From the IMG/VR virus record IMGVR_UViG_2541047692_000013: a stretch of 42,307 nucleotides of DNA; one strand, 5' to 3'. Made by a program: the position numbers and the translations under genes. This document shows positions 8,889 to 37,283 of the stretch, in pieces; position 1 is the stretch's first letter; each line of letters opens with the position of its first letter. The stretch is from a virus (taxonomy: Duplodnaviria; Heunggongvirae; Uroviricota; Caudoviricetes). The notes beneath the pieces are model-generated. The model was given only the letters and a program-made list of their open reading frames with translations. It had not been told where the DNA came from and searched no databases.

Positions 8889-9044
8889 ATGCGTTAAGCA
8901 CAGCTATATCCGAATTATGGTGGGCTGGGCAGGGGTCCGAAAGGACGCCGGTACCACTTAGGCCGGTACGCCAACCTTGTCCAGTTCACCACCAGTAATT
9001 GGCGTTGCGGTGGTGATTAAAATCACTAAGTGGAGATAACCACC

Positions 9045-9755
9045 ATGGCTAATGCTCAAACTTCCATCTTCAAATTTGAATCTGTTAACCCTATCCGTTC
9101 CATCATTATCGATGGCCAACCATGGTTTGTAGCCCAAGACGTTTGTAGTGCGCTGCGTATCCAAAACGTCACCCAAGCACTTGAAAAACTGGATGATGAT
9201 GAAAGGTCTATGTTCAACATAGGGCATGAACATCGTGCAATTTTTGACAGCCGAGTAAAAGAGATCAACATCATCTCCGAGTCAGGCCTCTACACACTGA
9301 TCCTCAGATGCCGCGACGCAGTGACACCAGGCACTATCCCCTACCGCTTTCGTAAATGGGTTACAGGTGAGGTTCTTCCTCAGATCCGCCGCACCGGAAG
9401 TTACATTAAAAACTCGCTCCCGCAGGAAGAACGCATAAAGATGGTTGCCGACCAGGTAGCCAACGCCACGGCGTCAGCAGTAATGCAGGCGATGAAGATA
9501 GAGAACAAAACCTACAGTGCCCCACTGAAGCCCGGCTACCGCAGTCTGATTCACTCGCCGTCTGGTGTTCTCGGCCTGACGGAGAACTCACTGCTGATGA
9601 ATCTGCTGAACCAGTTGCAGGACGACGGGCATGATGTATCGGGCGCGGCAGCGGAGCTGACCACCATGTTCTGCTACATCGTCGGTGTGAGCAAGTGCCT
9701 GCGTGATATCCAGACCCACGCGGAGTATATCAACGACAAAGCAGGGTTCTTCTGA
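9045..9755 (+). CDS. antirepressor (Bro-N / Ant family)
   Basis: Start taken as ATG 9045 with SD ggag; N-terminal Bro-N-like motif (IDGQPWFVAQDVCSALRI...LYTLILRCR...FRKWVTGEVLPQIRRTGSY). Confidence 0.75.
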   Translation: MANAQTSIFKFESVNPIRSIIIDGQPWFVAQDVCSALRIQNVTQALEKLDDDERSMFNIGHEHRAIFDSRVKEINIISESGLYTLILRCRDAVTPGTIPYRFRKWVTGEVLPQIRRTGSYIKNSLPQEERIKMVADQVANATASAVMQAMKIENKTYSAPLKPGYRSLIHSPSGVLGLTENSLLMNLLNQLQDDGHDVSGAAAELTTMFCYIVGVSKCLRDIQTHAEYINDKAGFF

Positions 9756-9901: not shown

Positions 9902-10534
9902 ATGAGAACAAATACAACAAGAAAAGCGATGCCATACATTATCCCAGAAGCAGATTTCGATAGAAAACTGAACATGTCTGAGAAGAACACTAGTCACACC
10001 GAAAGCTACTTAGCGAAAGGTGTGGTTGATTTCGTTCTTCCGGGATTCACAACACCTTATGGTTATCGCCTTGTAAAATCTTGTAATGGCGATCATTACA
10101 GAATGATTACTACCAGCGATACTCCAGAAACGGTGTATGCGGTTAAGTTAATCTTTCGGGAAGATATCGTCGAAGCCAAAAGAACATGTACGCAGATCAT
10201 GGTATGGCGTACGCCTAATGTTATTCATGACCGTGCTGTTCATGGTTTGCCTCAGATTTTTTTTCAGTTCTTCCTAGAGCAATATGCGATCGTTGTATCT
10301 GATGAGCAACAAACAATCGATGGGAGAAGATTCTGGGAAAGAATGATTTCTTGGGCTATAAACACCCCAGGATATAATGTATACGTTTCAGATGGCTCTG
10401 AAGAAGATAGACCTCTTAGCTTCATGACATCATGGGATGATTTCTATAGCCAGTGGGCTGATTTCTGTTGGGGCAGTGATAAAGATGTGCATACCCACAG
10501 ACTACTGGTTATAAGCAAAGATAAACTGCATTAA
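9902..10534 (+). CDS. hypothetical protein (moron, no recognisable domain)
   Basis: ATG 9902 with SD gggagga; 210 aa soluble protein; AT-rich relative to virion genes; own operator upstream and terminator downstream. Confidence 0.55.
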   Translation: MRTNTTRKAMPYIIPEADFDRKLNMSEKNTSHTESYLAKGVVDFVLPGFTTPYGYRLVKSCNGDHYRMITTSDTPETVYAVKLIFREDIVEAKRTCTQIMVWRTPNVIHDRAVHGLPQIFFQFFLEQYAIVVSDEQQTIDGRRFWERMISWAINTPGYNVYVSDGSEEDRPLSFMTSWDDFYSQWADFCWGSDKDVHTHRLLVISKDKLH

Positions 10535-18788: not shown

Positions 18789-21259
18789 CAGAATCCCCCA
18801 ACAGTAAGGCGAGGAATAACGGCAAGAACAGACAGCGGCAACGGATCAAGCTGACGGATTTTTACACGTCCGTTTTTGCCCCAGTTACTGTCCAGTTTCA
18901 CTTCTACTTTTCCGGTAGCATCATCAACAGGATCATCGTAGAACTCGAATTCACGCTGTGGATATTCGTACCATTTACCGCCGGGCGTAGTCGCCCAGAT
19001 GCCGCGGCTGGCATTCACAACCAGAGTAACGGATGGGATCACCTGTTTTTTGTCCAGCAGCGTTTCCTGTCCGTTAATGTTGATATCCAGTGTTTCGAAT
19101 TCAGCAGTTATTGGCAGGCCGATGTGCACTACAGCCCCCGGAGATTCCAGCGTGACGGCACCTCCGGAAACCACTTTCTGTGGTTCCACGTTCGCATCAG
19201 AGAGAATGTTTACGGTCTGGCCTTCAAGATGAGACAGGCCTCCAAATGTCCGGCGCGCCATCTGCCAGTTCGTGGTGGCCACATTCCTGAGGGATGGCGG
19301 GACGTTCCTGTTAGCACGAACCACTACAGCGGTATTGCTGGTTACAGAAATAATGTCGCAACGTAATTCTTTTGACACTTCATCGCCAGTATCAGGATCA
19401 GTTCCGGTATAAGGGAATTGTAGTTGCGCACCGACATCACTACTGGTGAAGTACGCACCACCAGAAATACTGATTGTATATTCCACGCGGTAATCCCATT
19501 CACCAGAACCACCAGTGATGGTCATCGTTCTGTCAGACGTATTTCTTCCATCATAGCTAAGGCCAGAATCAACAAAGAAAGCATCTTCATCGCTGGTAAA
19601 TAAACGGCTGGACAGCCGCTCGATGTATCTCACTGTTTGCCCGTTAACGGTTCGGTTAACGACGAAATACACCGCATCTTCATTTCCTTCGCTGATACTG
19701 CATGTGCTTTCATATTTTCCGGTACTGGACTGTGGTGCCCATGCAAAAACCTGTTGATCACGCAAATAGGTCATCACCAGTAATTTACCGTCATCACGAA
19801 TGCAGAAGGCGCTGGAGTAAGGGACAATAGAGAAGCACCAGTCAACAATGCTGTGCTTCTGAAAAAGATGATTGGCAAGGATGGTCAGGTCGTTCCCCTG
19901 ATAGCCGTCAACATCGAATGAGTAGGCCAGATCACGGACAACACTGCCTTTCTCCTGGACGAACAGAGCAATATTCGCCACGGCAATTGGTGGGACATTG
20001 CTCGAGCCATTTGATCCCTGAGAGCTGAATGCAAATGATGATGGGGTTAACACTTTGTTCTGGTCGCCGGTGATGACGTACTCACCTCCGGAAGTCAGCG
20101 CCACCAGCGAACCAACATCAATCAGGTGACGGATCTCATTAACCTGACGCCCGGCATAGGTGTAGATAATTCTGTCGTCATCCTGCGTAGGATTGCTTTT
20201 GCCAAAATCCTTATAATCCCCAGTACGGCTGGCCCAGATAGTCTGAGGGAACGCAGTCGATGCGGCGAAGTAAAGACGTTGTTGATAATAAACAACAGTG
20301 CCAGGATAACCATTAACACTGTTCCAGGCATATTTAGCCCATTTATAGCTGGCATTATCCTCGCCAACTACCTGCGAAGGGATATAGGAAATCACCTCGG
20401 CAGTTGCAGTAGTTCCATTTGCAGCAGTGATACGGGCAATGCCAAAACCACTGTGCAGATACTCCCACTCAATGCCAGTATCATCATCACCGGAGCCGCC
20501 CCAGCCATCCCATGATGTGCCTTCTGTATGCGAAGGGCGCAAAGTGCCTGTTTTGCCTGCTGTAACGGCGCGATAGTAGTTACTGTCTGCACGGCGAATA
20601 TCGCTAATCGACGTACTCTTACTGGTTTCCCATACCGGCACTGAATCCACTGCAGGCTGTTCCAGATAGAACAATTTGCCTACCTGCTCCGCGCCAAAAA
20701 TAGAGGCGCTTGCCGTTAACGTAATTGTCCCAGTGCTGGCGCTGGCATAAACCGTCACTGACTCGTCGATATTGATATCTTCAAATGGTCCGTTCTTCGT
20801 TACCACATCAACCAGTTGCCAGTTGTCATGCGCATAGCGACGCAACTCTTTCGGCGGGTATGCCGGATGAACAAGCGTAAGCACGTCGGCGCTTTGCGTG
20901 AATTTAATTCGGAACAGATCGGCTTCAGTATATGGCGTGGCAATTTCATAAATAACATTGCTGCTGTTCAGCACCAACGCACCATCTTTGATAACGCGCA
21001 TGTACTGGTGTCCGAACTCCAGAGCGTAGGTCTGAACCGTCGAGAACTGGAACGGGATCAGGCGGCATTTCCGATTTGGGTATTTGGCGGCACCGACAAA
21101 ACGCGTACCAGGTCGATTCTCAACGCCGCCATACTGCCGCACGATAAAGTTATCGCACTTGCGCAATGCCACCTGGTACTTCGCCATGTCGATACGACCG
21201 TACAACGACGGTCCAATCTCACCACCGGCAAAGCTGGGCTGGATCCAACTGATAGCCAT
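18788..21259 (-). CDS. tail tubular protein B-like (T7 gp12-like nozzle protein)
   Basis: 823 aa; N-terminus MAISWIQPSFAGGEIGPSLYGR resembles the conserved podovirus gp12 start; position after adaptor-like gene. Confidence 0.55.
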   Translation of the reverse strand: MAISWIQPSFAGGEIGPSLYGRIDMAKYQVALRKCDNFIVRQYGGVENRPGTRFVGAAKYPNRKCRLIPFQFSTVQTYALEFGHQYMRVIKDGALVLNSSNVIYEIATPYTEADLFRIKFTQSADVLTLVHPAYPPKELRRYAHDNWQLVDVVTKNGPFEDINIDESVTVYASASTGTITLTASASIFGAEQVGKLFYLEQPAVDSVPVWETSKSTSISDIRRADSNYYRAVTAGKTGTLRPSHTEGTSWDGWGGSGDDDTGIEWEYLHSGFGIARITAANGTTATAEVISYIPSQVVGEDNASYKWAKYAWNSVNGYPGTVVYYQQRLYFAASTAFPQTIWASRTGDYKDFGKSNPTQDDDRIIYTYAGRQVNEIRHLIDVGSLVALTSGGEYVITGDQNKVLTPSSFAFSSQGSNGSSNVPPIAVANIALFVQEKGSVVRDLAYSFDVDGYQGNDLTILANHLFQKHSIVDWCFSIVPYSSAFCIRDDGKLLVMTYLRDQQVFAWAPQSSTGKYESTCSISEGNEDAVYFVVNRTVNGQTVRYIERLSSRLFTSDEDAFFVDSGLSYDGRNTSDRTMTITGGSGEWDYRVEYTISISGGAYFTSSDVGAQLQFPYTGTDPDTGDEVSKELRCDIISVTSNTAVVVRANRNVPPSLRNVATTNWQMARRTFGGLSHLEGQTVNILSDANVEPQKVVSGGAVTLESPGAVVHIGLPITAEFETLDININGQETLLDKKQVIPSVTLVVNASRGIWATTPGGKWYEYPQREFEFYDDPVDDATGKVEVKLDSNWGKNGRVKIRQLDPLPLSVLAVIPRLTVGGF

Positions 21260-21864
21260 CAGGACAACCTCGCAATGGTAAACTCGTCAACCGGTGGCTG
21301 TGGTTCCTGTGATTCATTCTGGCTATGCGAGCCAGCACTAAGAATCACGCGATTGTACATATTGAGAGCAAATGTACCGAGATCCGCATTCCCAGTCAGC
21401 GCCATGTTAATGGCTGCCGCAAGACGCCAGGCCAACGCCTCCATAAAAATGGCATCAAACATGTTCACATCTGAAACGCGAGAGACATACTTGAGCCATG
21501 CCTGCGGCTGGTCTGTGTAGATCAACTTTCCTGTTCCGTCGGTGTCTGCACCAACTTCGTACTGAACGCGCATTGCTGCTGTTGGATTGCGTACACCAGG
21601 AAGCATAATTTCAGTAATGCGCAGACAATCTGACGGGTACTGATACGCATATTCCCAGTCAGGCGGTGGATTGCTCGTATCTGCAAGTGCCACGCGTTTG
21701 GTAGCAAAGTTCCAGTCAAAATCAGAAAGCACAGCATCACGGCAGGCCTCAAAGTGCAGCGAACATTCCCCCGCTTCCTTACTGGCTTCCGTCAGGCTGT
21801 TAATGCTGCGGCTATTGCCAATATTGGACAGCGCACGATTGCAGATCTCTACTACAGAGGCCAT
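21259..21864 (-). CDS. tail tubular protein A / adaptor-like protein
   Basis: 201 aa, immediately upstream of and overlapping the gp12-like gene; called mainly by synteny. Confidence 0.4.
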   Translation of the reverse strand: MASVVEICNRALSNIGNSRSINSLTEASKEAGECSLHFEACRDAVLSDFDWNFATKRVALADTSNPPPDWEYAYQYPSDCLRITEIMLPGVRNPTAAMRVQYEVGADTDGTGKLIYTDQPQAWLKYVSRVSDVNMFDAIFMEALAWRLAAAINMALTGNADLGTFALNMYNRVILSAGSHSQNESQEPQPPVDEFTIARLS

Positions 21865-22193
21865 TACTCACCCCCATTGCCGTACAGGGTTTCAGCCGCT
21901 GATTTTTCTACATCCCCGGAAACAGGAGCGATCGCCATATCAGTGATCTGCAGATCGGCGCTGCGATTAACACCATCGTCAGTTTCTCTGGCAGACAGGC
22001 CTCGAATAACAGCCTTTGCAGTTATCATCACTTCTGTTCCGACGCCCTGAGGTTGCGCCTTCAGCTTATTCAATGTGTCGTTATTAAGAGTGATGCACAG
22101 CCCCCACGGGTATTCATCGCGAGTTCTGGTTTCTCCGCTCTCATCCTGGTAGCTGTCAGTGCCGGTTTTGAGGTTTACGAGTTCCATATACAC
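21864..22193 (-). CDS. hypothetical virion-module protein
   Basis: 109 aa ORF in the capsid-to-tail interval, co-directional and tightly packed. Confidence 0.4.
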   Translation of the reverse strand: MYMELVNLKTGTDSYQDESGETRTRDEYPWGLCITLNNDTLNKLKAQPQGVGTEVMITAKAVIRGLSARETDDGVNRSADLQITDMAIAPVSGDVEKSAAETLYGNGGE

Positions 22194-22237
22194 TCCTGCA
22201 ATAAAGGGGCCGAAGCCCCTTGTCGGATTCGCGAGGC

Positions 22238-22582
22238 TTACACGCCCAGTTCTTTACGCTTATCTGCGATCTTCTCGCGGAGCGTTTCGGCTTTAGCGTT
22301 ATGGTGTGGCTTCTCGTTAAAGAGCAATTCGTACTCTTCACGGAGCTTATCCAGTTCACCATCATCTGACACATCGTTGATGATTTTGGTGCTGGTTGCT
22401 GCCATAGACACCTTTCCTGCTACCTTTGCTTTTGCCTGTCTGGCTGCATCGTTAACAGGTTCCAGTGCGCTACCAGGCTCACCTTCGTATTCGATTTCTG
22501 CCCCCTCCGGCCACAGAGTGTTATGGATATGAGAGAGGCGCAGAACGCGGTATCTTGGTTTCTCACCTGACATCGATATCAC
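22238..22582 (-). CDS. hypothetical virion-module protein
   Basis: 114 aa ORF, co-directional, 1-nt gap to the upstream gene. Confidence 0.4.
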   Translation of the reverse strand: MISMSGEKPRYRVLRLSHIHNTLWPEGAEIEYEGEPGSALEPVNDAARQAKAKVAGKVSMAATSTKIINDVSDDGELDKLREEYELLFNEKPHHNAKAETLREKIADKRKELGV

Positions 22583-22583
22583 C

Positions 22584-23021
22584 TTAACCAGTTACTTTTG
22601 AGCGGATCGGATACGGCGTATTGGCATCAACATCAAGACTGATACCAGCAGTGAATTCGCCAGCCGTTAGTGGGCCAGTTGCGACGGAGTAGTTAACACG
22701 CAGATATCGCTGAACACCGGCAGGCACCTTTGCAGAAACAACTCGTTTACCTGCTGTCAGGGCGGTCTTTGCCAGTGCGCCACTATCATAAATAGTGGTC
22801 CATGAGCTGTTATTCTCACTCGTCTGCAACTGGATGTTTACAGTTGCATCACCGCTTGCCGCGGCGGCTGTGTTAACCAGCGCCCAAAACTCAAGCGGGT
22901 AACCCACGCCGATATCACGACGTTTTCCGTCAATTGGACCGAGATCGATTACGTCAGTAGAAGCCGCGGTATTCGTAACCGCCTGAGCTTCGGAGAACAT
23001 CAACAGTTTGTCGGTGATCAT
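22584..23021 (-). CDS. putative capsid decoration / minor capsid protein
   Basis: 145 aa, Thr/Ala/Val-rich beta-type composition; first gene after the major capsid gene; SD ggagaaaga. Confidence 0.4.
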   Translation of the reverse strand: MITDKLLMFSEAQAVTNTAASTDVIDLGPIDGKRRDIGVGYPLEFWALVNTAAAASGDATVNIQLQTSENNSSWTTIYDSGALAKTALTAGKRVVSAKVPAGVQRYLRVNYSVATGPLTAGEFTAGISLDVDANTPYPIRSKVTG

Positions 23022-23036
23022 CTTCTTTCTCCATTA

Positions 23037-23056
23037 GTGGGTCTGTTACGACCCAC
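23037..23056 (-). other. stable RNA hairpin immediately downstream of the major capsid gene
   Basis: 7-bp stem gtgggtc/gacccac with 6-nt loop, 16 nt after the MCP stop and before the next SD; no U-run. Confidence 0.4.
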
Positions 23057-23072
23057 AGGTTAATAACAGGCG

Positions 23073-24065
23073 TTACACCACGCGGGCTTCTGTTTCCAGA
23101 AGCGCATCAGTTTCACGGATTGGTACACCACGGAATGAAGTCCACCACTCGCCTTCTGTCTCTTTTACGCTGATCGCCAGAGATGTTTTCTCCAGAGATT
23201 GCAGATCAAGAGCCTGGCCTACAGTGCGGTTCATGTAGAACACCGGGCGACCCATGCCACGATTTGGAATGCGATGCAGTGCTTTAACCATCAACTTCGC
23301 AATATTTGCGGCAGAGGAAGGTTCTGAAAGATTGCTGACATCGATGTTTGCAATGCGAACAACATAACGCCAGTCACGCAGAGCAAGTCCGTTGTCCCAT
23401 TTGTAATGGGTACGGTAGCCTTCGTACTTGCCGCCATTAGCATCTTCCAGTGTCACCTGGCCTTTATCTTCCATCTGAATGCCAGCCTTCTGCCCTTTCG
23501 GGAAGATGCCATGCACTGTGTTTTCGCCCCACACCACTAACCAGATTGAGGTGTTATCTGTACCCGTGCCACCAGCATCAATGATGTTCTGAGCATTACC
23601 TGCAGACAGGCTGGAATAGCGGGAGGACAGTCCCATAAACTGCTGAGGGTTAACGCTGGAATCACCATAAAACAGCGTCTGCGCCATCTGCTGATTCATC
23701 GCTTCAATAAATGCGCGGTCTTCAGACAGGCGGAATTCGGCGGTATTGCCGTTCAGATCAGCCAGTGACTTATCGACTTCAGCATAGGTTTCCAGCATGC
23801 CAACGGAATCGGTTACCTGCACTGTGGTTGATTTGCTTGGCTGTACGCCATAGTTCAGCAAACGCCAGGTAGCTGAAGGTAAACCAGAACGAATGGTGGT
23901 TCGGTGTCCGGTAGGAAGGTTCCCTTCGACAAAAGGCATATCCTGAAGGATCGGGTTAGTTTGACCGAGAAGCTCGATAATCTTATCGACTTTCCCGTTT
24001 GGATCGACGCGCTTACCCCAGTCAGCCAGCGTTAGCGCAGTTAAGCCTTTAACAGCCATTGTCAT
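23073..24065 (-). CDS. major capsid protein (HK97 fold type)
   Basis: 330 aa; follows the scaffold gene; size and composition typical of podovirus major capsid proteins. Confidence 0.7.
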   Translation of the reverse strand: MTMAVKGLTALTLADWGKRVDPNGKVDKIIELLGQTNPILQDMPFVEGNLPTGHRTTIRSGLPSATWRLLNYGVQPSKSTTVQVTDSVGMLETYAEVDKSLADLNGNTAEFRLSEDRAFIEAMNQQMAQTLFYGDSSVNPQQFMGLSSRYSSLSAGNAQNIIDAGGTGTDNTSIWLVVWGENTVHGIFPKGQKAGIQMEDKGQVTLEDANGGKYEGYRTHYKWDNGLALRDWRYVVRIANIDVSNLSEPSSAANIAKLMVKALHRIPNRGMGRPVFYMNRTVGQALDLQSLEKTSLAISVKETEGEWWTSFRGVPIRETDALLETEARVV

Positions 24066-24073
24066 TTCCTCTC

Positions 24074-24775
24074 TTATTTGCCATAGAGCACTTCGGCCGC
24101 ACTACGCTGGCCTTCATTACCACCGGTGACCATGCCATCTTCAGACATCGCCTTTCCGATTTTCACGAACGTTTTGACCAGATCAGGGTGATTACCCAGC
24201 CCGGTGGTGTTCAGATATTCTTTGAGTTCAGGTGTCCCGAACTGGTCAAGCGCACGCTGTGCGGCGCTAAGGTTAGAAATCAACTTGTCGCCACCGATTT
24301 CTTTGTCAGCTTTTACATCAGCAGCCCACTGCTCGGTTGTTTTCTGCCAGGCTTCTGCCTGGCGCTGCTGCACACCTGCCAGAATCTTCGGATAAGCATC
24401 AACCAGCTTTTGCGCTTGCTCGTTGGTCAGGTTAAGTTCTCGCGCCACCGGCTCGAATTCCTTCAACGCTTCTGTATCCAGCTCTACGCCTTCGGCAGCC
24501 TGAAACTCGTACTTCTCAGGCGCACCCTCTGGTTTATCGCCGTCCTTTTTTTCATCCTGCTTATCGTTTTCAGGCTTTTTGTCATCAGCAGGTTTATCGC
24601 CATCAGCAACAGGTTGTGGCTTATCACCTTCCGATTGTGATGGATCACCAACTGGAGCAGGGTTATCACCTGCAGGCGCTGACGGTTCTGACGCAGCCGG
24701 AGCTGCTCCACCATCGACTGGTTGCTCATTGCAAAGACGGCGATACAGCAAACGCTCAAATAAATTCATGATCAC
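24074..24775 (-). CDS. scaffolding protein
   Basis: 233 aa, highly acidic, Ala/Pro/Glu/Lys-rich with low-complexity linker; between portal and capsid genes. Confidence 0.6.
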   Translation of the reverse strand: MIMNLFERLLYRRLCNEQPVDGGAAPAASEPSAPAGDNPAPVGDPSQSEGDKPQPVADGDKPADDKKPENDKQDEKKDGDKPEGAPEKYEFQAAEGVELDTEALKEFEPVARELNLTNEQAQKLVDAYPKILAGVQQRQAEAWQKTTEQWAADVKADKEIGGDKLISNLSAAQRALDQFGTPELKEYLNTTGLGNHPDLVKTFVKIGKAMSEDGMVTGGNEGQRSAAEVLYGK

Positions 24776-25068
24776 TCCTGTTCACTGGCCTCTTTGGCCA
24801 TCTTCAAATACTGTTCAGGGCAATGCGCCATAACGCGCTGAAACAGTTCCAGCGCCAGATTGCGTTGCCCCTCATTAAATGCCATTGCCATAGCATCCAT
24901 CGGAGAGATAGCGGAAAACACCCGGCCTTTCTCCAGCACAGACCAGACAACGCGACGCCCCTGTTCACTGCTCATGACAAAGCGAATGTCATCAATTTCA
25001 CGTTGTGCCATGTCACGTTGCTTACGGGCGTTTTCTTCTTTCAGTTGATCGTCTTCGTAATCTGTCAT
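24772..25068 (-). CDS. hypothetical small protein between portal and scaffold genes
   Basis: 98 aa; 4-nt overlaps on both sides indicate translational coupling. Confidence 0.45.
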   Translation of the reverse strand: MTDYEDDQLKEENARKQRDMAQREIDDIRFVMSSEQGRRVVWSVLEKGRVFSAISPMDAMAMAFNEGQRNLALELFQRVMAHCPEQYLKMAKEASEQE

Positions 25069-26744
25069 TGTGATTGCCCACCCTGACCACTAACTGCATT
25101 CGCCATAGCTGACAAAACACTCGGATCCGAAGTTTTAGCTTCGCTTAGCGTCTTGGCACCCTGTGCCGCCGCCATCCCCATCTCCATCATTTGTTGCTGC
25201 TGTTGTTGCTGTGCCCGTTGCTGGCGAGCCTGCTCAACCTGTTCCTGCGGAACAATGACGGTTGGAGACACTCCGGACATATCAGCGAATGCATCGATTG
25301 CCTGATCAACGTTGAGTTTGTCGAGAGCTTCTGGTTTCGCTTGCGCAAGTTGACCAATGAAGTTGACCGTAGACGCCAGACTGGACAGGCCGATAGACTT
25401 CTGCGCCTGAGCCATGACGGAAATGTATTCGACCTTCAGGGGCATACCTTCCATCGCGTCAGGCGGGGGCGGCAGCATGTTTTTACGCACCATCATCGAG
25501 AAAGCGCGGTCAATGAGAGGATTAAGACATTCGTCGTTCAGACGCTCCAGAACCGGCCCCAACATCAGAAGTTTTTCTTCTTTCATTTCGATCACCGCTT
25601 CAACAGGCATCGAACGGGTATTGATGTTCTGCAACATCATGAACAGATCGACAAAGTAGGCACTGTTAATGATTTGACGAGTGTCCTGAATGTCTGCCAC
25701 CAGATCTGCTGTACTGGGGTTAACCAGATAAGCAGGCCTGAAACCATCCTGACCAGTAATCTGATCGATATACGTGATGTCGCCAGGAAGAAGGGAGGCG
25801 CGCTGATTCTTGAGGGAAGTCGGAGCAATCATCGGCGGATTGGTGGCTTTATCAATCAACTGCGACTTGCGCTTCTGGAGAAGCTGCAATGCCTTAACAG
25901 GTCCAAGCGCCAGCATACCCGGGCATGATGATCCATAAACATCTTCGCCGTTAACTTCCCAGCGCGGAGCCATAATTGGAAACTCATCGAATCCTGACTC
26001 ACGCAACAACTTGTCGTTATCACCGCCAACCTCGTAATAAACCGATTTGAATGGCTTGTTCTTGCTATCCAGCTTCGATGTATCGCGGTCAATGTTCGGG
26101 TAAACCGAATGCATCACTTCAATCCACTTCTCGTAGGTGCCGCTTTCCCACATGCTTTTTACGGATTCGCTGACGTTATTTAGCCCGAACTCCTGAACAA
26201 GCTGACGAACAGTCATAGAGAACTTGCGAAAACAGGTGTCCACACTGCCACGAGGTGAGTTAGCCAGGTAGTAACTGCCTATCGGGAATGGCATTGTGCG
26301 AATGATGTCATCGTCATCCTCCAGTACCGCCATTGCACCAGTGCTGTATGTGCCGAGGCTTCCGTATAACTGCGGCAGCGACTGATAGAGATTCGACTTA
26401 TTGAACATATCGTTCATGCGGTTCTGCACCGCCTCAAGCCACAACTTAACAGGGCCATAATCCATCATTTCAGGATCTGGCGTAGCCAGGCGAAACCACG
26501 GACGCGCGGGGCTTGTGATGCCTGACATCATGCCGCTGGCGAGAGTGCGCGCCGCCATAGTCCCGGTCGAATCAATAATGCGTGTATTGCGTCGATCGTT
26601 ACGGTTGACCTCAGAAGTCAGAAAGCGGGAACCACGCGGGTTGATGTAATCACTCAACTCGCGCCAGTGCGGCTCGAACGACTGACGCTCGCTTTCAAGT
26701 TGTGCGAACTGTTTGTTCAATCGCTCTTTAGTTGTTTCCGCCAT
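25065..26744 (-). CDS. portal (head-to-tail connector) protein, T7-type
   Basis: 559 aa; C-terminal Gln-rich tail (QQRAQQQQQQQMMEMGMAAAQGA...) resembles the T7 gp8 C-terminus. Confidence 0.75.
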   Translation of the reverse strand: MAETTKERLNKQFAQLESERQSFEPHWRELSDYINPRGSRFLTSEVNRNDRRNTRIIDSTGTMAARTLASGMMSGITSPARPWFRLATPDPEMMDYGPVKLWLEAVQNRMNDMFNKSNLYQSLPQLYGSLGTYSTGAMAVLEDDDDIIRTMPFPIGSYYLANSPRGSVDTCFRKFSMTVRQLVQEFGLNNVSESVKSMWESGTYEKWIEVMHSVYPNIDRDTSKLDSKNKPFKSVYYEVGGDNDKLLRESGFDEFPIMAPRWEVNGEDVYGSSCPGMLALGPVKALQLLQKRKSQLIDKATNPPMIAPTSLKNQRASLLPGDITYIDQITGQDGFRPAYLVNPSTADLVADIQDTRQIINSAYFVDLFMMLQNINTRSMPVEAVIEMKEEKLLMLGPVLERLNDECLNPLIDRAFSMMVRKNMLPPPPDAMEGMPLKVEYISVMAQAQKSIGLSSLASTVNFIGQLAQAKPEALDKLNVDQAIDAFADMSGVSPTVIVPQEQVEQARQQRAQQQQQQQMMEMGMAAAQGAKTLSEAKTSDPSVLSAMANAVSGQGGQSQ

Positions 26745-26758
26745 TTCAATGACTCCGG

Positions 26759-26965
26759 TTACTGACCAAGCAGCGTTTTACCGCTGGTATTAGCGGTTGA
26801 TGTGTCACCCTGAGAACCGGTAAGCAGCGTAGAACTACGACCAGCAGCAGCGCGACGGCGACGTGTTTCTTCGTCGCGGGCATCAACAACGGCGGCATCC
26901 TGCTCCTGTGGTGCTGCCTGAACTTCTGGTGTTGCAGGCACTGATGGTGAGCTACCCATGCACAT
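26759..26965 (-). CDS. small hypothetical protein upstream of portal
   Basis: 68 aa low-complexity ORF; ATG at 26963-26965 with SD ggag 8 nt upstream; existence uncertain. Confidence 0.35.
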   Translation of the reverse strand: MCMGSSPSVPATPEVQAAPQEQDAAVVDARDEETRRRRAAAGRSSTLLTGSQGDTSTANTSGKTLLGQ

Positions 26966-27033
26966 ATCAATGACTCCGTACGCAATTAAATTATTACCAA
27001 TTTAACCACATATGATTTATTTATCGTAGACAG

Positions 27034-27071
27034 TTGACATTTAACGCACGAATTATTACCTTTCAGGTAAG
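27034..27071 (+). promoter_or_regulatory. promoter-like element (TTGACA at 27034-27039) with perfect operator TTACCtttcaGGTAA (27056-27070), in divergent region between virion operon and tRNA module
   Basis: Consensus -35 hexamer; operator where a -10 would lie; region is ORF-free on both strands. Confidence 0.45.
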
Positions 27072-27392
27072 CAGAGAGTGCATTCCTGTTATTAACCTGA
27101 CTGGCTTGTCGTTAAATTGAACAGGTGGAGTGAGATTTTATTTTGAGCAGTACGGCGTATGGCACATGCGCCGATAGCGGTCTGGATACGTTTAATGGGC
27201 ACCCTCCCTTGCTCGGGCAAACGAACCAGGTAGCCGGAATGTGCAAGTCGAGCGGTTTTATTCCGCGCACGGGGATTCACCATCCCGGCGATTCGGTGTG
27301 ACGCCTCGGAAGAGACGAGGGTGCAACGATGAGAGCATTTATGGAGCCGCGACAAAGTGTGGCGCCTTAACAGGCTAAGTGCTCTCAGCGTT

Positions 27393-27469
27393 GTGGCATT
27401 AGCTCAGTTGGACAGAGCAACCGCCTTCTAAGCGGTCGGTCGCAGGTTCGAATCCTGCATGCCACGCCA
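27393..27469 (+). tRNA. tRNA-Arg (anticodon UCU)
   Basis: 77-nt cloverleaf by hand: acceptor GTGGCAT/ATGCCAC, D-arm GCTC/GAGC, anticodon stem ACCGC/GCGGT with loop CTTCTAA, T-arm GCAGG-TTCGAAT-CCTGC, discriminator G, encoded CCA. Confidence 0.85.
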
Positions 27470-27512
27470 GAATCACGCCTAAGGACCGTGATGCCAGAAG
27501 TTCCAGGGGCTT

Positions 27513-27555
27513 GGCGGTGATGGTTTCCCTTGAAGGACTATCACCGCCCTTTTTA
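27513..27555 (+). terminator. intrinsic terminator after the tRNA
   Basis: 8-bp stem ggcggtga/tcaccgcc enclosing a 20-nt loop, followed by CTTTTTA. Confidence 0.5.
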
Positions 27556-27632
27556 CAGCAGGACGCCATTGCGATGGCTTCATGCTGTAAACCAGTACAG
27601 CCACGGAAGGCATAACTCATTGCTTCCAGTTC

Positions 27633-27656
27633 GCCCGGTTCGCCGGGCATTTTTTT
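27633..27656 (+). terminator. second intrinsic terminator, directly upstream of the next gene's RBS
   Basis: Stem gcccgg/ccgggc with loop ttcg followed by ATTTTTTT; SD aaggtgag starts right after. Confidence 0.55.
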
Positions 27657-27672
27657 AAGGTGAGATTAGACT

Positions 27673-28044
27673 ATGAGTGACAAAGACATTGAATCTGAAA
27701 TTCAGGCTAAAGGTTTAGCCGCGCCGCGCGTTACGCCAGACCATATCGAGAGTATTATTGCTCAGGAGGCATATTTCACAGCAGAAGATGGTGTCTTTGG
27801 CGTAGCCATAAAAGCGAAACATACTGGCGGAGAGGTAAACTACCAGCCGCACGAATCACTTTCTCTGCTGACGTTCTGCGTTCTGGTGCTGCGCAATGGC
27901 TTCACCGTCACCGGAGAGAGCGCCTGTGCAAGCCCGGAAAACTTTGATGCGGAAATTGGTCGGAAGATTGCCCGGCAGAATGCTGTAAACAAAATCTGGA
28001 TGCTTGAAGGTTACTTGCTGAAGCAGAAGTTAAGCGAGCAATAA
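27673..28044 (+). CDS. conserved phage hypothetical protein (possibly N4 Gp49 / Sf6 gene 66 family)
   Basis: ATG 27673 with SD aaggtgag; 123 aa; family assignment from memory only. Confidence 0.5.
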   Translation: MSDKDIESEIQAKGLAAPRVTPDHIESIIAQEAYFTAEDGVFGVAIKAKHTGGEVNYQPHESLSLLTFCVLVLRNGFTVTGESACASPENFDAEIGRKIARQNAVNKIWMLEGYLLKQKLSEQ

Positions 28045-28048
28045 CACC

Positions 28049-28060
28049 GTGACATGTCAC
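28049..28060. repeat. perfect palindrome GTGACATGTCAC (copy 2 of 3)
   Basis: 4 nt after the stop of 27673..28044 and directly before the terminator hairpin. Confidence 0.8.
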
Positions 28061-28064
28061 AAAC

Positions 28065-28091
28065 AGCCAGCCGATGAGCTGGCTTTGTTTT
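28065..28091. terminator. terminator between convergent gp49-like and terminase genes
   Basis: Stem agccagc/gctggct with loop cgatga; TTGTTTT follows on the plus strand; weaker T-run on the minus side. Confidence 0.55.
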
Positions 28092-28134
28092 ATCCTCACC
28101 AGAGGATATCTCCGTCATTATCCCCGCTAACGGA

Positions 28135-29610
28135 TTAAGCATAGGGATCGTAATCTGTAATGGCCTTGCCTTGCTGGTTCTGCTGCCCGGGAATTCGCAG
28201 ACGCTTAGACACAGGGAACGCAAACGTCAGCAGTAGCGCATCGCCTTTACCCGGCGAACGCCCAAGCCGCTCCTTGATATCTTCCTTCGGTTCGATAACG
28301 ATTTTACCGTCCACTCGAACTTTGTACTCTGCCGCCGACAGGTCGTCCGCTGTTTCCTGGTCATCCAGCATGCCGCCCAGCCTCAGCCATGTCTTGCATG
28401 AGTTGAACATCTCCCCACGCTTGTTGAGCATCTGCGGGTCAGTAGACGCGCCACCGAACGGAACAAGTTGCCATGTGCGCCCCCAACCGTCACCGATTGA
28501 CTTCAGCCCGGTACCGTAACCGAAGTCGATGAACACCGCGTCAGCCTGATACTGGTCTTCAAAGTCAGCGATACGCTTCGCCATAATCAGATCGTCAGTG
28601 GTCTTGTTGCCGGTCCACAGCACCTTACTATGCAGCCCCTGCCGCAGGTATATCACAGCGTCATCAACGCCGGAGTATGCCGGGTCAACGCCGATTATCA
28701 CCGGAGCATGTGCAACCTGCGCAGCGGTTACCACCCGTTTCATTGCCTCGTCAGTAAGTCCGGTAGGGATAAACTGCAATTCAGATGCATCCGGGAATAT
28801 GCCGCGCACACGGATTTTAACGAAGTCGCTGTCTTCCCCGTAGTCATCAACCCATTTCTGCAACTGCTGTTTGTTAGTGCCTTCCACCGTCCGGCTGTCA
28901 ATCTGCGCAGTTTTCCAGCGGTGTTTATATTTGCGGAAACATTCGCGGAAACGCCCGGTGTTACGTGTAGGGTTTCCGAACGCCACCCAGATAATCTCAG
29001 TGTCTTCGTCCGTAAGCGCACCCTCAGCAACTTCCCACACCAGATCCGCAATGTTCGACGCTTCATCAAATACCACGATGATGCGTTTACGCTCGTTGTG
29101 TAGTCCGGCGAATGCCTCAGTGTTGTGCTCAGACCAAGGGATTGCGTCAGCTCGCCACCGCTTGTCGTGCCCAGGATCATTGCTGTACATCGCGGTAGCG
29201 GTACAGGTAAACCAGTCTTTCGTGATAGCAAGGTTCGACCACTTGATAATTTCCGGCCAGGTCTTCGTTCGTAGCTGGTTGTCGGTGTTGGCGGTCACCA
29301 CAACCTTACAATCCTCGCAAGTGGACATGCCCCAGTTGATCAGCATTGAGATGAATGCGGATTTACCAATACCGTGACCAGAAGCACGTGCCAGCATAAG
29401 CGGCTGATATCGCGTCTCTGGATTCTGCAGGTGATCACGTATCTCTCGGAACGCATCAGCCTGCCATTGACGTGGGCCGGTAGCATGTGCCAGTTCAGTC
29501 CCCTCTTCCCCCCACGGGAACGCATAGAGGGCATAACCAAGCGGATCGTGAGTAAACCCTGCAATATCCTCGATCAACTGCTCTTCAGGAGATAACACTG
29601 TATCTGTCAC
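28135..29610 (-). CDS. terminase large subunit
   Basis: 491 aa; N-terminal ATPase-like region and C-terminal nuclease-like region (GVDPAYSG); GTG start overlapping the small-subunit stop. Confidence 0.75.
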   Translation of the reverse strand: MTDTVLSPEEQLIEDIAGFTHDPLGYALYAFPWGEEGTELAHATGPRQWQADAFREIRDHLQNPETRYQPLMLARASGHGIGKSAFISMLINWGMSTCEDCKVVVTANTDNQLRTKTWPEIIKWSNLAITKDWFTCTATAMYSNDPGHDKRWRADAIPWSEHNTEAFAGLHNERKRIIVVFDEASNIADLVWEVAEGALTDEDTEIIWVAFGNPTRNTGRFRECFRKYKHRWKTAQIDSRTVEGTNKQQLQKWVDDYGEDSDFVKIRVRGIFPDASELQFIPTGLTDEAMKRVVTAAQVAHAPVIIGVDPAYSGVDDAVIYLRQGLHSKVLWTGNKTTDDLIMAKRIADFEDQYQADAVFIDFGYGTGLKSIGDGWGRTWQLVPFGGASTDPQMLNKRGEMFNSCKTWLRLGGMLDDQETADDLSAAEYKVRVDGKIVIEPKEDIKERLGRSPGKGDALLLTFAFPVSKRLRIPGQQNQQGKAITDYDPYA

Positions 29611-30200
29611 TGATTACCATCCTGACGTTCTTTGAGTCGCTTCCTGGCTGCTGCTATGCGATCAGCAATTGTCACATTCACATTAACATCCAGGCGTTCT
29701 TTGAATGCGTTGACGTCGACGTGCTTACCAATCAGTTCGAGGTTCTTCACCTTGTCAGGCCATTTAATTTTTTTGAGGATTGTCTCTATCGAATCCTCGT
29801 TCATGTTCATGATGGTCGATGACAGATCAAAGCCGCTAAGCGTAGTGCGCCAGATTTTCGGCCACTCGCGGATTGGCTTAAGGCTCCCATCGTCGTTGAG
29901 GATGTCGATCACGTCCATCTGGTCGATCTCCACCAGGCGCATGAGAACGTAATCAGCACTGACGCGCATTCGTTTGTTGCGCTCCTCCATCAACTCGGCA
30001 ATCCGTTTTTGAATGCGTTCATCGCGCATCATGACACTGGCTTTAACTGCCGCTGTATTTGGGGAGAATCCTGCATTAATCGCTGCCTGAGTCTGGTTTT
30101 CAGGCGTTTTGATGTATGACTGGCAATAAGCCTCCTGCATTGCTGTTAGTGGCTTAAATTGCGTTGATTTGCGTTTATAGGTTTTAGGTTCAGCAGGCAT
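29607..30200 (-). CDS. terminase small subunit
   Basis: Start taken as the second ATG (30198-30200; 30201-30203 also possible); the ORF-track N-terminal extension runs through the operator and is discounted; Terminase_2-like region (AINAGFSPNTAAVKASVMMRDERIQKRI). Confidence 0.65.
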   Translation of the reverse strand: MPAEPKTYKRKSTQFKPLTAMQEAYCQSYIKTPENQTQAAINAGFSPNTAAVKASVMMRDERIQKRIAELMEERNKRMRVSADYVLMRLVEIDQMDVIDILNDDGSLKPIREWPKIWRTTLSGFDLSSTIMNMNEDSIETILKKIKWPDKVKNLELIGKHVDVNAFKERLDVNVNVTIADRIAAARKRLKERQDGNQ

Positions 30201-30201
30201 C

Positions 30202-30236
30202 ATAACCACCGTGGTAATAGTTACCGTTGTGGTAAT
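30202..30236. promoter_or_regulatory. tandem operator sites at the terminase start: aTAACCaccgtGGTAAt (one mismatch) and gTTACCgttgtGGTAAt (perfect)
   Basis: Centres 18 bp apart; the first overlaps the TerS start codon and SD. Confidence 0.5.
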
Positions 30237-30243
30237 AGTACCA

Positions 30244-30272
30244 TGCAAAATAAAGCCGCCATAGTTGGCGGC
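30244..30272 (-). terminator. intrinsic terminator between the early operon and the late (terminase) operon
   Basis: Stem gccgcca/tggcggc with loop tagt, followed on the minus strand by TTTATTTT; about 45 nt upstream of the TerS start. Confidence 0.6.
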
Positions 30273-30313
30273 AGTATTCAAAACCCATCAAATTCATCAT
30301 GCATAATCTACTC

Positions 30314-36106: not shown

Positions 36107-36123
36107 ATTACCTTTGAGGTACG
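36107..36123. promoter_or_regulatory. operator-like palindrome aTTACCtttgaGGTACg (one mismatch) between cro-like and downstream early genes
   Basis: Same motif family; adjacent to a terminator-like hairpin. Confidence 0.4.
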
Positions 36124-36130
36124 AATAGAT

Positions 36131-36155
36131 ATGAAAAGACCGCCGGGTGGCGGTC
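36131..36155 (-). terminator. terminator-like hairpin downstream of the cro-like gene (tR1-like position)
   Basis: Stem gaccgcc/ggcggtc with loop gggt, followed on the minus strand by TTTTCAT. Confidence 0.4.
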
Positions 36156-36177
36156 TACAGAGGGTTGTAGCTGGATA

Positions 36178-36408
36178 TCATGAGTAGAAGAAGTATGCCA
36201 GTTCTGCTTTTGAGCGCAGCCATTGTCTTGTTTTACAGGCTTTAAAAAGCCCATTCATCAATACTTTACCTGGCATTTTGCGCTTACCTGTTAAGTGAGT
36301 CTGGATATAGTGACTCGTCGTTCCGGCTTCCTGTGCGAAGGCTTCACGCTCATCCGGAGTAAGTGCAAGCCAGTGCTTTTTGAAATCGAAATGTCCGTTA
36401 TCGCTCAT
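36178..36408 (-). CDS. Cro-like HTH regulator
   Basis: 76 aa; HTH (REAFAQEAGTTSHYIQTHLTG); divergent from the CI-like gene across the operator cluster; first gene of the leftward early operon. Confidence 0.6.
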   Translation of the reverse strand: MSDNGHFDFKKHWLALTPDEREAFAQEAGTTSHYIQTHLTGKRKMPGKVLMNGLFKACKTRQWLRSKAELAYFFYS

Positions 36409-36443
36409 AGCTATTGCCTGATATTTATTTCAGATAATAAATA

Positions 36444-36508
36444 TTCACCCATAAGGTAACAAAAATCAAGGATAGTTACCCATGAGGTGCATTTACCTGT
36501 TGGGTAAT
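36444..36508. promoter_or_regulatory. tripartite operator in the cro / cI-like intergenic region
   Basis: Three sites: TCACCcataaGGTAA (36445-36459), TTACCcatgaGGTGC (36476-36490), TTACCtgttgGGTAA (36493-36507); a minus-strand TTGATT -35-like hexamer lies among them. Confidence 0.6.
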
Positions 36509-36562
36509 ATTGCTTTAAATTGAATCATCTACTGATTCATATATGAGGCGATTTTCCAGAAA

Positions 36563-37147
36563 ATGAAAAGTATCCAGGACGTCCGCAGGCAAAATCTCAA
36601 CGACTTGATCGACCGTGAATTCAATGGTGTTCAGACGCGGATGGCAGAAAAACTTGGAACTCAGGCAAATCTGGTAAACCGCTGGGCTCTTGGCAAGAAG
36701 GTTATCGGCGACCAGGTTGCGCGAAAAATTGAAGCTGCCGCCAATAAACCACGTAACTGGCTTGATATCGATCGCTCGCTTTCTCAGGAAGGTTTTCAGC
36801 CTGTCGGCCCAAGCGACATTGGTCAGCTGGCGGCTCACAACCTGGAACGCTGGATGAGCGAAAGCCGCGACCTTTCAACTCAGGGAAAACTTCACCGCGC
36901 ATCCGGCGTCGCCCAGGTGACAATCAGCCGCCTGTTAAACAATGAGGTCAGTGTTTCCATTTCCACCCTGGAGAATGTTGCATCAGCATTCGGGCGTCAC
37001 GGCTATGAATTACTGATTCACCCGCACGACCCTGCGACCATCAACTATGACCGCTCGCGCTACGCATTGTTACCCGAAACCGAGAAAGCAAAGATCGAAA
37101 GTTACATTGAATTTGTCATCAACCAGAACGAAAAAAACAAACAATAA
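36563..37147 (+). CDS. CI-like repressor with two tandem HTH (XRE-type) domains and no peptidase/autocleavage domain
   Basis: 194 aa; HTH-like segments at about residues 20-45 (VQTRMAEKLGTQANLVNRW) and 110-140 (ASGVAQVTISRLLNNEVSVSISTLENVASAF); no Ala-Gly/Ser-Lys LexA-type cleavage module seen. Confidence 0.55.
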   Translation: MKSIQDVRRQNLNDLIDREFNGVQTRMAEKLGTQANLVNRWALGKKVIGDQVARKIEAAANKPRNWLDIDRSLSQEGFQPVGPSDIGQLAAHNLERWMSESRDLSTQGKLHRASGVAQVTISRLLNNEVSVSISTLENVASAFGRHGYELLIHPHDPATINYDRSRYALLPETEKAKIESYIEFVINQNEKNKQ

Positions 37148-37169
37148 AATCATATTTTTCAGTAAGTAA

Positions 37170-37192
37170 GCCGCCTTCTGGCGGCTTTTTTA
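37170..37192 (+). terminator. intrinsic terminator after the CI-like gene
   Basis: Stem gccgcc/ggcggc with loop ttct followed by TTTTTT. Confidence 0.7.
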
Positions 37193-37203
37193 TTGCCTAT
37201 ACT

Positions 37204-37283
37204 ATTACCTAATGGGTAATTTTTTTTAACTCATATCTATTGACATCAAACCAAATACGCATAATTATTACCTCAACGGTAAC
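37204..37283 (+). promoter_or_regulatory. rightward early promoter (TTGACA at 37240-37245) flanked by two perfect operators
   Basis: Operators TTACCtaatgGGTAA (37205-37219) and TTACCtcaacGGTAA (37268-37282); the second overlaps the -10/+1 region; followed by SD gagg and ATG 37302. Confidence 0.55.

Follow-up and report, generated by a model that had tools for sequence, protein, structure and literature searches.

We analyzed a plus-strand unit at positions 27034-28091 of IMG/VR record IMGVR_UViG_2541047692_000013, a 42,307-nucleotide (nt) stretch of viral DNA that we refer to, at its full length, as the window, and identified in the leader of this unit a 173-nt structured RNA (hereafter, the core) that represents an apparently undescribed and very widespread RNA family. 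The window is a phiV10/epsilon15-like prophage of the genus Uetakevirus (epsilon15-like podoviruses), and the unit is an early, repressor-controlled accessory cassette of this prophage. The core was present in more than 150 phage and prophage loci belonging to three unrelated phage groups, and in every context it lies in a repressor-controlled early transcript. Our preferred explanation, to which we assign a probability of roughly 0.45, is that the core is a cis-acting RNA with a role like that of the put RNA of phage HK022, letting RNA polymerase pass two terminators (T1 and T2) in front of the protein-coding gene of the unit (hereafter, the cargo gene). An earlier sequence-only reading had described the region as a transfer RNA (tRNA) module, tRNA-Arg(UCU), with an attenuator. 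Every feature that it listed is present at or near the position it gave, and these features do form a separate unit opposing the late genes: its promoter is overlapped by an operator, and it contains a tRNA-Arg(UCU), a Gp49-family gene and three hairpins that resemble terminators. Its headline, however, overlooks the central feature, which is the structured leader RNA.

The leader contains a conserved structured RNA core

About 320 nt of the unit had been noted to hold several hairpins and no credible open reading frame (ORF). This part is indeed noncoding and structured; what had been missed was its significance, since the leader is the key element of the unit and carries a conserved RNA family. 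The parts of the leader are as follows.

27070-27147, plus strand: 5' leader, conserved among Uetakeviruses only
27148-27320, plus strand: structured RNA core, 173 nt, with five covarying helices including a pseudoknot
27153-27161 with 27165-27173, plus strand: core helix P1
27181-27185 with 27226-27230, plus strand: core helix P2, which encloses a variable P3
27229-27247, plus strand: invariant 19-mer GGUAGCCGGAAUGUGCAAG
about 27252-27266, plus strand: variable P4
27272-27275 with 27283-27286, plus strand: core helix P5
27278-27281 (CACC) with 27295-27298 (GGUG), plus strand: core pseudoknot
27304-27308 with 27316-27320, plus strand: core helix P7, loop GAAGAGA

A scan of viral contigs with the 19-mer recovered at least 120 loci, which gave 98 distinct 200-nt cores, 38 of them less than 92% identical. 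We scored five helices (P1, P2, P5, the CACC/GGUG pseudoknot and P7) on these 38 sequences and found that 94.6% of the paired cells could pair, as compared to 28-55% when the partners were slid. Thirteen pairs had changed on both sides, and none of 500 shuffles reached the observed values. Since G-U pairs are conserved, the plus strand appears to be the functional one. No ORF across the leader (27070-27392) stays open in the 38 relatives, and the minus-strand ORFs over this region in phiV10 (p04) and mEp460 (037) are spurious because no frame is conserved and the insertions and deletions are not in multiples of three.

The whole leader (27070-27392) had a folding z-score of -2.66, while the 5' leader by itself folded no better than shuffled sequence (z 0.07). 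The latter holds a weak A+U-rich hairpin (27097-27134, folding free energy (dG) -9.6) followed by AUUUUAUUUU (to 27143), ahead of the core; this segment (27097-27143) may be a chance match or a site of weak early termination or pausing.

A covariance model of the core (R1) detected one copy in the window (27128-27340, 159.5 bits) and no second one. The leader matched no family of Rfam 15 at the gathering threshold when the whole window was searched, or at E-values up to 5 when 26900-28200 was searched; around the unit, Rfam matched nothing but the tRNA, with one further match that was an antisense artefact and a weak one, RyhB-like, at T2. A literature search covering the conserved motif strings, put-like and RNA-mediated antitermination, the phage small RNAs AgvB and EcOnc, and phages phiV10 and epsilon15 returned no description of the core. 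A preprint on noncoding RNAs found by a genome language model proved to be unrelated to it.

Three further possibilities were considered and set aside. A long-range pairing of the P1 loop with the 19-mer (GCACAU with AUGUGC), proposed by RNAalifold, is invariant on both sides, so that covariation cannot discriminate it, and the local P1 hairpin covaries. The loop of P7, the UCCYUU loops that P3 and T1 share, and a UAAGGA loop at 27478-27486 might contact one another; such pairings would involve only 3-5 bp and were inconsistent between subfamilies. The 19-mer shares GGTAGC with the ops site of RfaH, the core of which we take to be GGCGGTAGCGTG, and on reading the alignment, with no formal test, the remaining ops positions were not conserved.

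The core occurs in three unrelated phage groups

A DNA search with the leader alone matched about 240 nt at about 80% identity in lambdoid phages (mEp460, cdtI, Stx2c phages, 2H10 and Ayreon) and in P7 and P1-like phages. Among 5,426 complete Escherichia coli genomes, 1,834 (about one third) carried the core, at 2,465 places, of which 1,911 were chromosomal and 554 were on plasmids; the plasmids listed were about 94-102 kb. No annotated feature lay under the core match in any of 30 E. coli records taken at even steps down the ranking of the matches listed. A genome scan with a different anchor motif yielded 21 further full-length matches (140-196 bits), 20 from Enterobacterales species and one from a contig labelled as a Bacillota metagenome-assembled genome, and the 19-mer was unchanged in 20 of the 21. 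In phage P1, the core (record positions 71000-71218, 140.6 bits) lies in the 286-nt gap between trnI and ban and is unannotated in a record of 535 features; P7 likewise carries it in the unannotated gap between these two genes.

In Uetakeviruses, the portal gene and gp3 lie on one strand and the core with its variable cargo on the other, followed by the terminase. The lambdoid phages have cro on one strand and a cI-type repressor gene, the core and the early-left genes on the other. Their repressors are of many different helix-turn-helix plus S24 types and end 180-240 nt before the 19-mer, and the position of the core is that of nutL and putL. The TTGC-N7-GCAA operators of the cro/cI intergenic region of mEp460 recur 60-85 nt upstream of the core, which stands about 28 nt into the putative pL transcript. 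The first mEp460 gene 3' of the core encodes an acidic protein that is not N-like, and none of six scanned downstream proteins matched an N-type Pfam family. In P1-like phages, the order is tRNA-Ile, core and ban, within the C1-controlled ban operon; a second P1-like group has a tRNA array followed by the core, a Tad2-like gene, lpa and pac. The tRNA lies 6-10 nt upstream of the core in P1-like phages. We also noted some other P1-like elements in which the core follows a five-tRNA array that includes tRNA-Arg(TCT).

The promoter of the unit is overlapped by a repressor operator

The promoter region of the unit comprises two overlapping features.

27034-27062, plus strand: sigma-70-type promoter, -35 TTGACA (27034-27039), 17-nt spacer, -10 TACCTT (27057-27062), read from the sequence
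27056-27070, no strand: repressor operator, palindrome TTACCTTTCAGGTAA, spanning the -10

Transcription is predicted to start at about 27069-27070. We based the promoter call on conservation because a generic consensus scan was at chance level (one promoter-like site as compared to 1.3 expected); an alignment of five Uetakeviruses from Escherichia, Salmonella, Enterobacter and Klebsiella showed that the -35 hexamer and the block containing the -10 and the operator are invariant. The operator palindrome occurred 17 times in the window with up to two mismatches, against 0.93 expected, and most of the copies lay in regulatory sequence near the repressor gene or the antirepressor module. Eleven sites had at most one mismatch, including a cluster around the repressor gene (36108-37268). 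The homologous site in the epsilon15 GenBank record is a protein_bind feature labelled 'repressor', which adjoins an IHF site. That the promoter is operator-overlapped, as had been proposed, is supported by the recurrence of the operator at other regulatory regions and by its position across the -10, and the promoter of the unit is predicted to be repressor-controlled.

The TTACCTNNNAGGTAA operator sites were located at 7549, 8668, 8761, 9828, 27056, 34144, 34206, 36108, 36493, 37205 and 37268. This spread over at least six genome regions resembles the many C1 operators of P1 and not a lambda-like oL/oR pair.

Two conserved terminators separate the core from the cargo gene

Downstream of the core and its linker we located the following features.

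27513-27556 (hairpin 27513-27548), plus strand: terminator T1, 14-bp hairpin plus CUUUUUACA, dG -22
27557-27656, plus strand: inter-terminator segment, two hairpins and then T2, z -4.0
27633-27648, then U7, plus strand: terminator T2, GCCCGG-UUCG-CCGGGC, six G-C pairs
28065-28094 (hairpin 28065-28084), plus strand: terminator T3, 7 bp and then UUUGUUUU, weakly bidirectional, closing the unit beside the terminase stop codon

At T1, T2 and T3 alike, a G+C-rich hairpin runs directly into a U-run, in keeping with the three terminators proposed before. Their number on the plus strand is by itself not significant (3 as compared to 1.8 expected); T1 and T2 are conserved with compensatory changes. T1 has the form UUGGCGGY-stem-loop(UCCYUU)-stem-RCCGCC-CUUUUUACA, in which UUGGCGG is invariant and the inner pairs covary. 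In 95 of 135 loci, the pattern GGCGGY..RCCGCC..UUUU followed the 19-mer at a distance of 200-900 nt, and only two other places in 1.4 Mb had it; T1 is the conserved 3' domain of the RNA family. In 41 non-redundant contexts, we counted 56 terminators downstream of the core on the same strand, as compared to 18-29 in the controls. With a relaxed U-run rule, about 34 of the 41 contexts had a downstream terminator, the P1-like contexts being the main exception. Terminators lie between the core and the first gene in mEp460 and, judging by ORF positions, in several lambdoid contexts.

The U-run of T2 ends at 27656 and the Shine-Dalgarno sequence of the cargo gene, AAGGTGAG, starts at 27657. In epsilon15 and SPN1S, the T2 stem carries compensatory changes (GCCCAC-UUCG-GUGGGC). 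The segment 27557-27656, with T2 included, has the shape of an Hfq-type small RNA and is conserved in these same two phages; its only Rfam matches were weak and RyhB/rsmX-like.

The terminator directly before the cargo gene had been taken for an attenuator. We found no competing fold: all six T2 pairs had a pair probability of at least 0.95 and the outer 11 of the 14 T1 pairs one of at least 0.98, in four upstream contexts each, and both the minimum free energy (MFE) and the centroid folds kept T2 intact. The only sequence upstream that was complementary to the terminator arms was a 5-nt partial match to those of T2 (CCCGG at 27284). Alternative pairing is also unlikely because T1 stands 200-900 nt from the core with unrelated inserts between them. 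A consensus scan detected no promoter-like site between T1 and the cargo gene.

The linker of the unit holds an optional tRNA

Between the core and T1, the linker of the window has three elements.

27322-27393, plus strand: long near-perfect hairpin, UGCAACGAUGAGAGCAUU with AAGUGCUCUCAGCGUUG, its 3' arm reaching the first base of the tRNA
27393-27469, plus strand: tRNA-Arg(UCU), anticodon TCT by ARAGORN, 72.2 bits to Rfam RF00005 (gathering score 29)
27472-27492, plus strand: small hairpin AUCACG-loop(CCUAAGGAC)-CGUGAU, structure read from the sequence

The long hairpin (dG -38.9 kcal/mol, z -4.3) has an RNase III-like form. In mEp460 and Tyrion, this stem recurs around a different interior, and the epsilon15 record annotates an 'RNaseIII' site in the corresponding leader. 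The small hairpin is kept in the window, in SPN1S and in two tRNA-less loci (L047 and L071), thus with or without the tRNA.

Both ARAGORN and the Rfam covariance model, the latter above its gathering score, called the tRNA-Arg(UCU) that had been read from the sequence, and PGAP annotates the corresponding tRNA of E. coli genomes as tRNA-Arg. Its acceptor stem is 7 bp long, its D-loop (GGACA) agrees with A20, its anticodon is UCU, and the CCA is encoded, as part of a GCCA end; we take the identity elements of arginyl-tRNA synthetase to be A20, C35 and U36, plus the 3' CCA for the acceptor. The view of the whole unit as a tRNA module did not hold up, since this slot goes back to the ancestor of the genus (epsilon15, SPN1S, Tyrion and Klebsiella relatives) and the tRNA is optional, being present in 8 of 15 sampled Uetakevirus slots. 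In L047 (2010-2105, minus strand) and L071, the same flanks enclose a structured domain of about 95 nt, closed by GUGGUG/CACCAC and followed by AACCA. The L047 domain resembles the Methylophilales-1 RNA (RF03011; 29.7 bits, E 7e-4), a resemblance only, as the score is below the gathering score of 79.9; this domain is absent from the window. A larger linker domain with the same closing helix was seen in mEp460. The tRNA is therefore a swappable element of the linker that joins the core to T1 and not a part of the RNA family.

A clean deletion has removed most of the core, the linker and the tRNA from epsilon15 (L002, 3023-3164, compared with SPN1S, L010). Its endpoints are two copies of TTCCCTTGATGCT, one belonging to the P3 loop and the other to that of T1. 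The deletion accounts for the 48-bit remnant of the core in epsilon15 and for the odd features of its record, in which the 'RNaseIII' feature lies just upstream of the remnant and overlaps it.

We also examined whether codon usage bears on the tRNA. AGA makes up 6.2 per 1000 codons of the phage and 10.7% of its Arg codons, about three times the E. coli average. It is concentrated in early, tail and O-antigen-modification genes: in an unannotated 210-amino-acid ORF with no Pfam match (9902-10534, plus strand), 10 of 14 Arg codons are AGA, and there are seven AGA codons in the O-antigen acetyltransferase gene. The block of head genes (21259-26965, minus strand) has no AGA at all. This pattern fits ordinary codon supplementation; the tRNA could also serve as a spare against anticodon nucleases.

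The cargo gene belongs to the Acb4 family

The unit carries a single cargo gene.

27673-28044, plus strand: cargo gene, 123 amino acids, ATG at 27673, Shine-Dalgarno AAGGTGAG at 27657-27664

Its product matched PF13876 (Phage_gp49_66) over the full profile (1-82 of 82) with 121.3 bits (cut-off 27, E 2.4e-35), which bears out the earlier description of a gp49-like gene. A 2024 study defined PF13876 as the family of Acb4 proteins, which are CBASS-blocking cyclic-dinucleotide sponges; tetramer formation, binding of 3'3'-cGAMP and CBASS inhibition were reported for SPO1 Acb4 and eight homologues, and all eight purified PF13876 homologues bound 3'3'-cGAMP (bioRxiv 10.1101/2024.12.30.630793). Directly against the SPO1 Acb4 structure (9e4w), the match was weak (E 0.007), with the N-terminal ~60 residues outside the alignment. 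By its profile match, we assign the cargo protein to the Acb4 family of anti-CBASS sponges, a name that should replace 'Gp49 family protein' in the annotation of the window.

We surveyed the cargo at 45 loci that have a terminase-like gene downstream of the core, mostly Uetakevirus slots. Acb4 was found in 13 of them, a Tad2-like protein (PF11195) in 10, an uncharacterized 201-amino-acid protein in nine and a 292-amino-acid protein without a confident Pfam match in six; the remainder were assorted. A Tad2-like gene lies directly behind the core RNA in a Klebsiella relative and in the second P1-like group. Because of these Acb4 and Tad2-like genes, we consider the cassette an early counter-defence slot.

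A proposed cis-acting role for the core

We propose the following course of events. Once the repressor leaves the operator, sigma-70 RNA polymerase would start at about 27070 and would first transcribe a multi-domain RNA made of the core, the long hairpin, the linker with tRNA-Arg(UCU) and T1. The nascent core would act in cis on its own polymerase, as the HK022 put RNA does, so that polymerases from this promoter would pass T1 and T2 and the cargo, an Acb4-type sponge against CBASS, would be expressed. The tRNA would be released by RNase P and 3' processing and would decode AGA in the AGA-rich early, tail and O-antigen-modification genes. Read-through would be needed for the cargo because T1 and T2 are unopposed and no promoter-like site precedes acb4. 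An action through the polymerase, and not by local refolding, is suggested by the distance of 200-900 nt between the core and T1, into which tRNAs, ORFs and RNA domains are inserted.

The P1 consensus, CGGCR-N(5-25)-CAUGYGYCG, was found outside the family only in stem I of HK022 putL and HK639 putL and at one stray site in about 1.3 Mb. In put, this stem I helix is next to the A9-G35 pair (our numbering, derived from the sequence), and it is this pair that provides the platform for the beta' zinc-binding domain (PMC9378689). The invariance of the 19-mer suggests contact with a conserved host component.

Several observations weigh against this proposal. Model R1 had no match in the put loci of HK022 and HK639 at E-values up to 10, and the likeness to put is that of one helix, which was noticed before it was tested. 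The P1-like contexts lack T1. In epsilon15, the core has been deleted and a hybrid terminator, T2 and the cargo gene are kept, so that either the core is dispensable there or the cargo is silent. Simple read-through leaves the conservation of T1 unaccounted for, both its UUGGCGG and its UCCYUU loop, which is repeated in P3. In this genus, a terminator-proof polymerase would also transcribe the terminase genes in antisense, unless it is halted at T3.

Several other explanations were weighed against a put-like role. In the main rival, possible if unlikely, the region between the promoter and T1 (~27070-27556, ~490 nt) would be a gene in its own right for a large noncoding RNA acting in trans, for example as a particle of the GOLLD/ROOL kind, by sponging up a host factor or as a counter-defence at the RNA level, with the tRNA as a passenger or processing handle and the cargo expressed by leakage only. 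That region comes with a repressor-controlled promoter and a conserved terminator domain of its own, and it has a multi-domain make-up with a variable linker holding a tRNA or another structured domain. Moreover, the core is abutted by tRNAs in two contexts that are unrelated, on its downstream side in Uetakeviruses and 6-10 nt upstream of it in P1-like phages, the cargo next to it serves counter-defence (Acb4, Tad2), and GOLLD and ROOL are likewise phage-borne and near tRNA islands, the GOLLD linker sometimes containing tRNAs (bioRxiv 10.1101/2024.12.08.627333). On the other hand, the early-left operon of lambdoids must be transcribed through the core, the core of P1 and P7 stands directly before ban without a promoter or T1 of its own, it is only 173 nt, and the Rfam models of GOLLD, ROOL and other families gave no match. 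The more specific version, in which the promoter-to-T1 transcript, composed of the core, a tRNA or tRNA-like linker and the terminator domain, is a new class of large phage RNA that serves as a takeover or counter-defence device in trans, an enterobacterial counterpart of GOLLD and ROOL that might bind RNA polymerase or a Nus factor, for instance, or else the ribosome or an immune protein that senses RNA, seems to us rather unlikely. The core could also be a large nut-like site at which a phage antiterminator protein, or a host factor such as NusA, NusG or RfaH whose recruitment is regulated, brings about conditional read-through. The positions and terminators argue for this as much as for a put-like role, and a strong, conserved T1 makes most sense if termination is the default, as it is at pL-nutL-tL1 and pR'-tR' of lambda, where read-through is conditional. 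We nevertheless regard it as improbable: Uetakeviruses, lambdoids and P1-like phages have no evident common regulator gene beside the core, neither the first mEp460 gene nor any of the six scanned proteins was N-like, and the GGTAGC of the 19-mer resembles the ops core without conserved flanking ops positions in the alignment.

The tRNA itself could be the point of the unit, as a 'moron' for codon supplementation, with the leader as a mere scaffold for processing or stability, without regulatory function, and the terminators as insulation from the late operon. The AGA usage given above, in particular that of the 210-amino-acid ORF and the acetyltransferase gene, speaks for it. Yet about half of the related slots have no tRNA and still keep the promoter, the core, T1 and T2, lambdoids carry the core with no tRNA nearby, the head genes lack AGA, and the invariant 19-mer and the pseudoknot go far beyond the needs of a scaffold; we consider this explanation quite improbable. 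A classical attenuator or riboswitch-type switch, in which T2, or T1 and T2, would respond to alternative folding of the leader, is suggested by the structured RNA upstream and by the terminator immediately before the Shine-Dalgarno sequence of the cargo, an arrangement kept in epsilon15, SPN1S and others. The stability of the T1 and T2 stems in all upstream contexts, the intact T2 of the MFE and centroid folds and the single 5-nt partial match tell against it, and so does the distance of the core from the terminators (190-330 nt here and 200-900 nt in relatives, with unrelated inserts), which makes such a switch very improbable.

Neighbouring genes and other sites of the window

The 1.5 kb around the unit shares 99.0% identity with Escherichia phage phiV10 and 99.9% with prophages of several complete E. 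coli genomes. Between ~36 kb and 11 kb, the minus strand carries nearly all genes, and the unit is the sole plus-strand unit there. The adjoining genes and one further site are as follows.

25065-26744, minus strand: portal (PF12236, E 3.5e-187)
26759-26965, minus strand: 68-amino-acid homologue of epsilon15 gp3
28049-28060, no strand: 12-bp palindrome GTGACATGTCAC, with perfect copies at 10818, 28049 and 30314
28135-29610, minus strand: large terminase, so annotated in the phiV10 and epsilon15 records
29607-30281, minus strand: small terminase

The argument that late transcription must cross the unit antisense or restart at the portal side is logically sound. The only terminator-like signal on the late strand across the unit is a weak one, the reverse of T3, and the phiV10 record annotates the T3 hairpin as a rho-independent terminator on that strand. 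Three perfect copies of the palindrome GTGACATGTCAC occur in the window, as compared to 0.09 expected, and a one-mismatch copy lies at 25005-25016. The copies are just 5' of the small terminase gene, just 3' of the large terminase gene and acb4, and where the tail genes end; the palindrome may be a binding site by which the late-operon boundaries are marked.

Elsewhere in the window, Rfam matches above the gathering score were obtained for isrK (8812-8888, plus strand) and C4 antisense RNA (8913-8996, plus strand). Two operators lie 5' of this pair (8668 and 8761) and a Bro-N antirepressor gene 3' of it (9030-9755). The region 8668-9755 looks like an antirepressor module of the P1 immI type in a podovirus, and the same RNA pair occurs in mEp460.

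Comparison with known systems

Like GOLLD and ROOL, the core is encoded by phages and prophages, has a complex structure and is adjacent to tRNAs, sometimes with a tRNA in the linker (bioRxiv 10.1101/2024.12.08.627333). It differs from them in having no Rfam match, in its size (a 173-nt core, ~490 nt with the linker and T1), in its fixed place at the head of early operons and in being restricted so far to Enterobacterales. The c4 RNA of P1 and P7 and the CI RNA of P4, which are matured by RNase P-type processing, are, like the core, leader RNAs of repressor-controlled early operons in the same phage groups. Those RNAs act by pairing with downstream targets; the core has no sequence or profile similarity to them, and no such repeated target was identified. 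In lambda, the arrangements pL-nutL-N-tL1 and pR'-qut-6S RNA-tR' share with the unit the order of promoter, leader, strong terminator and genes, with a short leader RNA by default. Unlike in lambda, no N-like or Q-like gene accompanies the core, and the leader is highly structured and conserved across phage groups. By eye, we found neither boxA nor boxB in the leader; a boxA-like UGCUCU in the 3' arm of the long hairpin was discarded as it is buried in a duplex.

Whatever the core does, it marks a gap in annotation and in Rfam and is a good target for structural work. It is directly accessible in classic, genetically tractable phages (P1, P7, phiV10 and Stx2c phages). In three unrelated phage lineages, counter-defence genes (Acb4, Tad2) and tRNAs have apparently been inserted behind this one RNA, as behind a portable expression unit.

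The closest parallel is with putL and putR of HK022 and the putL-like site of HK639, which are also cis-encoded RNAs just 3' of a repressor-controlled early promoter in N-less lambdoids, with terminators after them. The stem I of put and P1 of the core share the closing helix CGGCG/CGYCG, a preceding A and a 3' CAUG, and there is one copy of the core per genome, as of put in HK639. Rfam holds no put model and the HK022 putL locus is unmatched in it. The core has 173 nt, five helices and a pseudoknot, as compared to about 70 nt and two stems in put, and is not a member of the put family because there is no profile match between them. Unlike put, it also occurs in P1-like phages and in podoviral Uetakeviruses far from any pL, and it is coupled to a terminator domain and tRNAs. 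To our knowledge, put has been the only example of a phage RNA-only antiterminator since 1996. If the core acts in this way, it would explain how the early-left operon is expressed in many N-less lambdoids, and it would constitute a second class of RNA-only antiterminator beside put and structurally unrelated to it.

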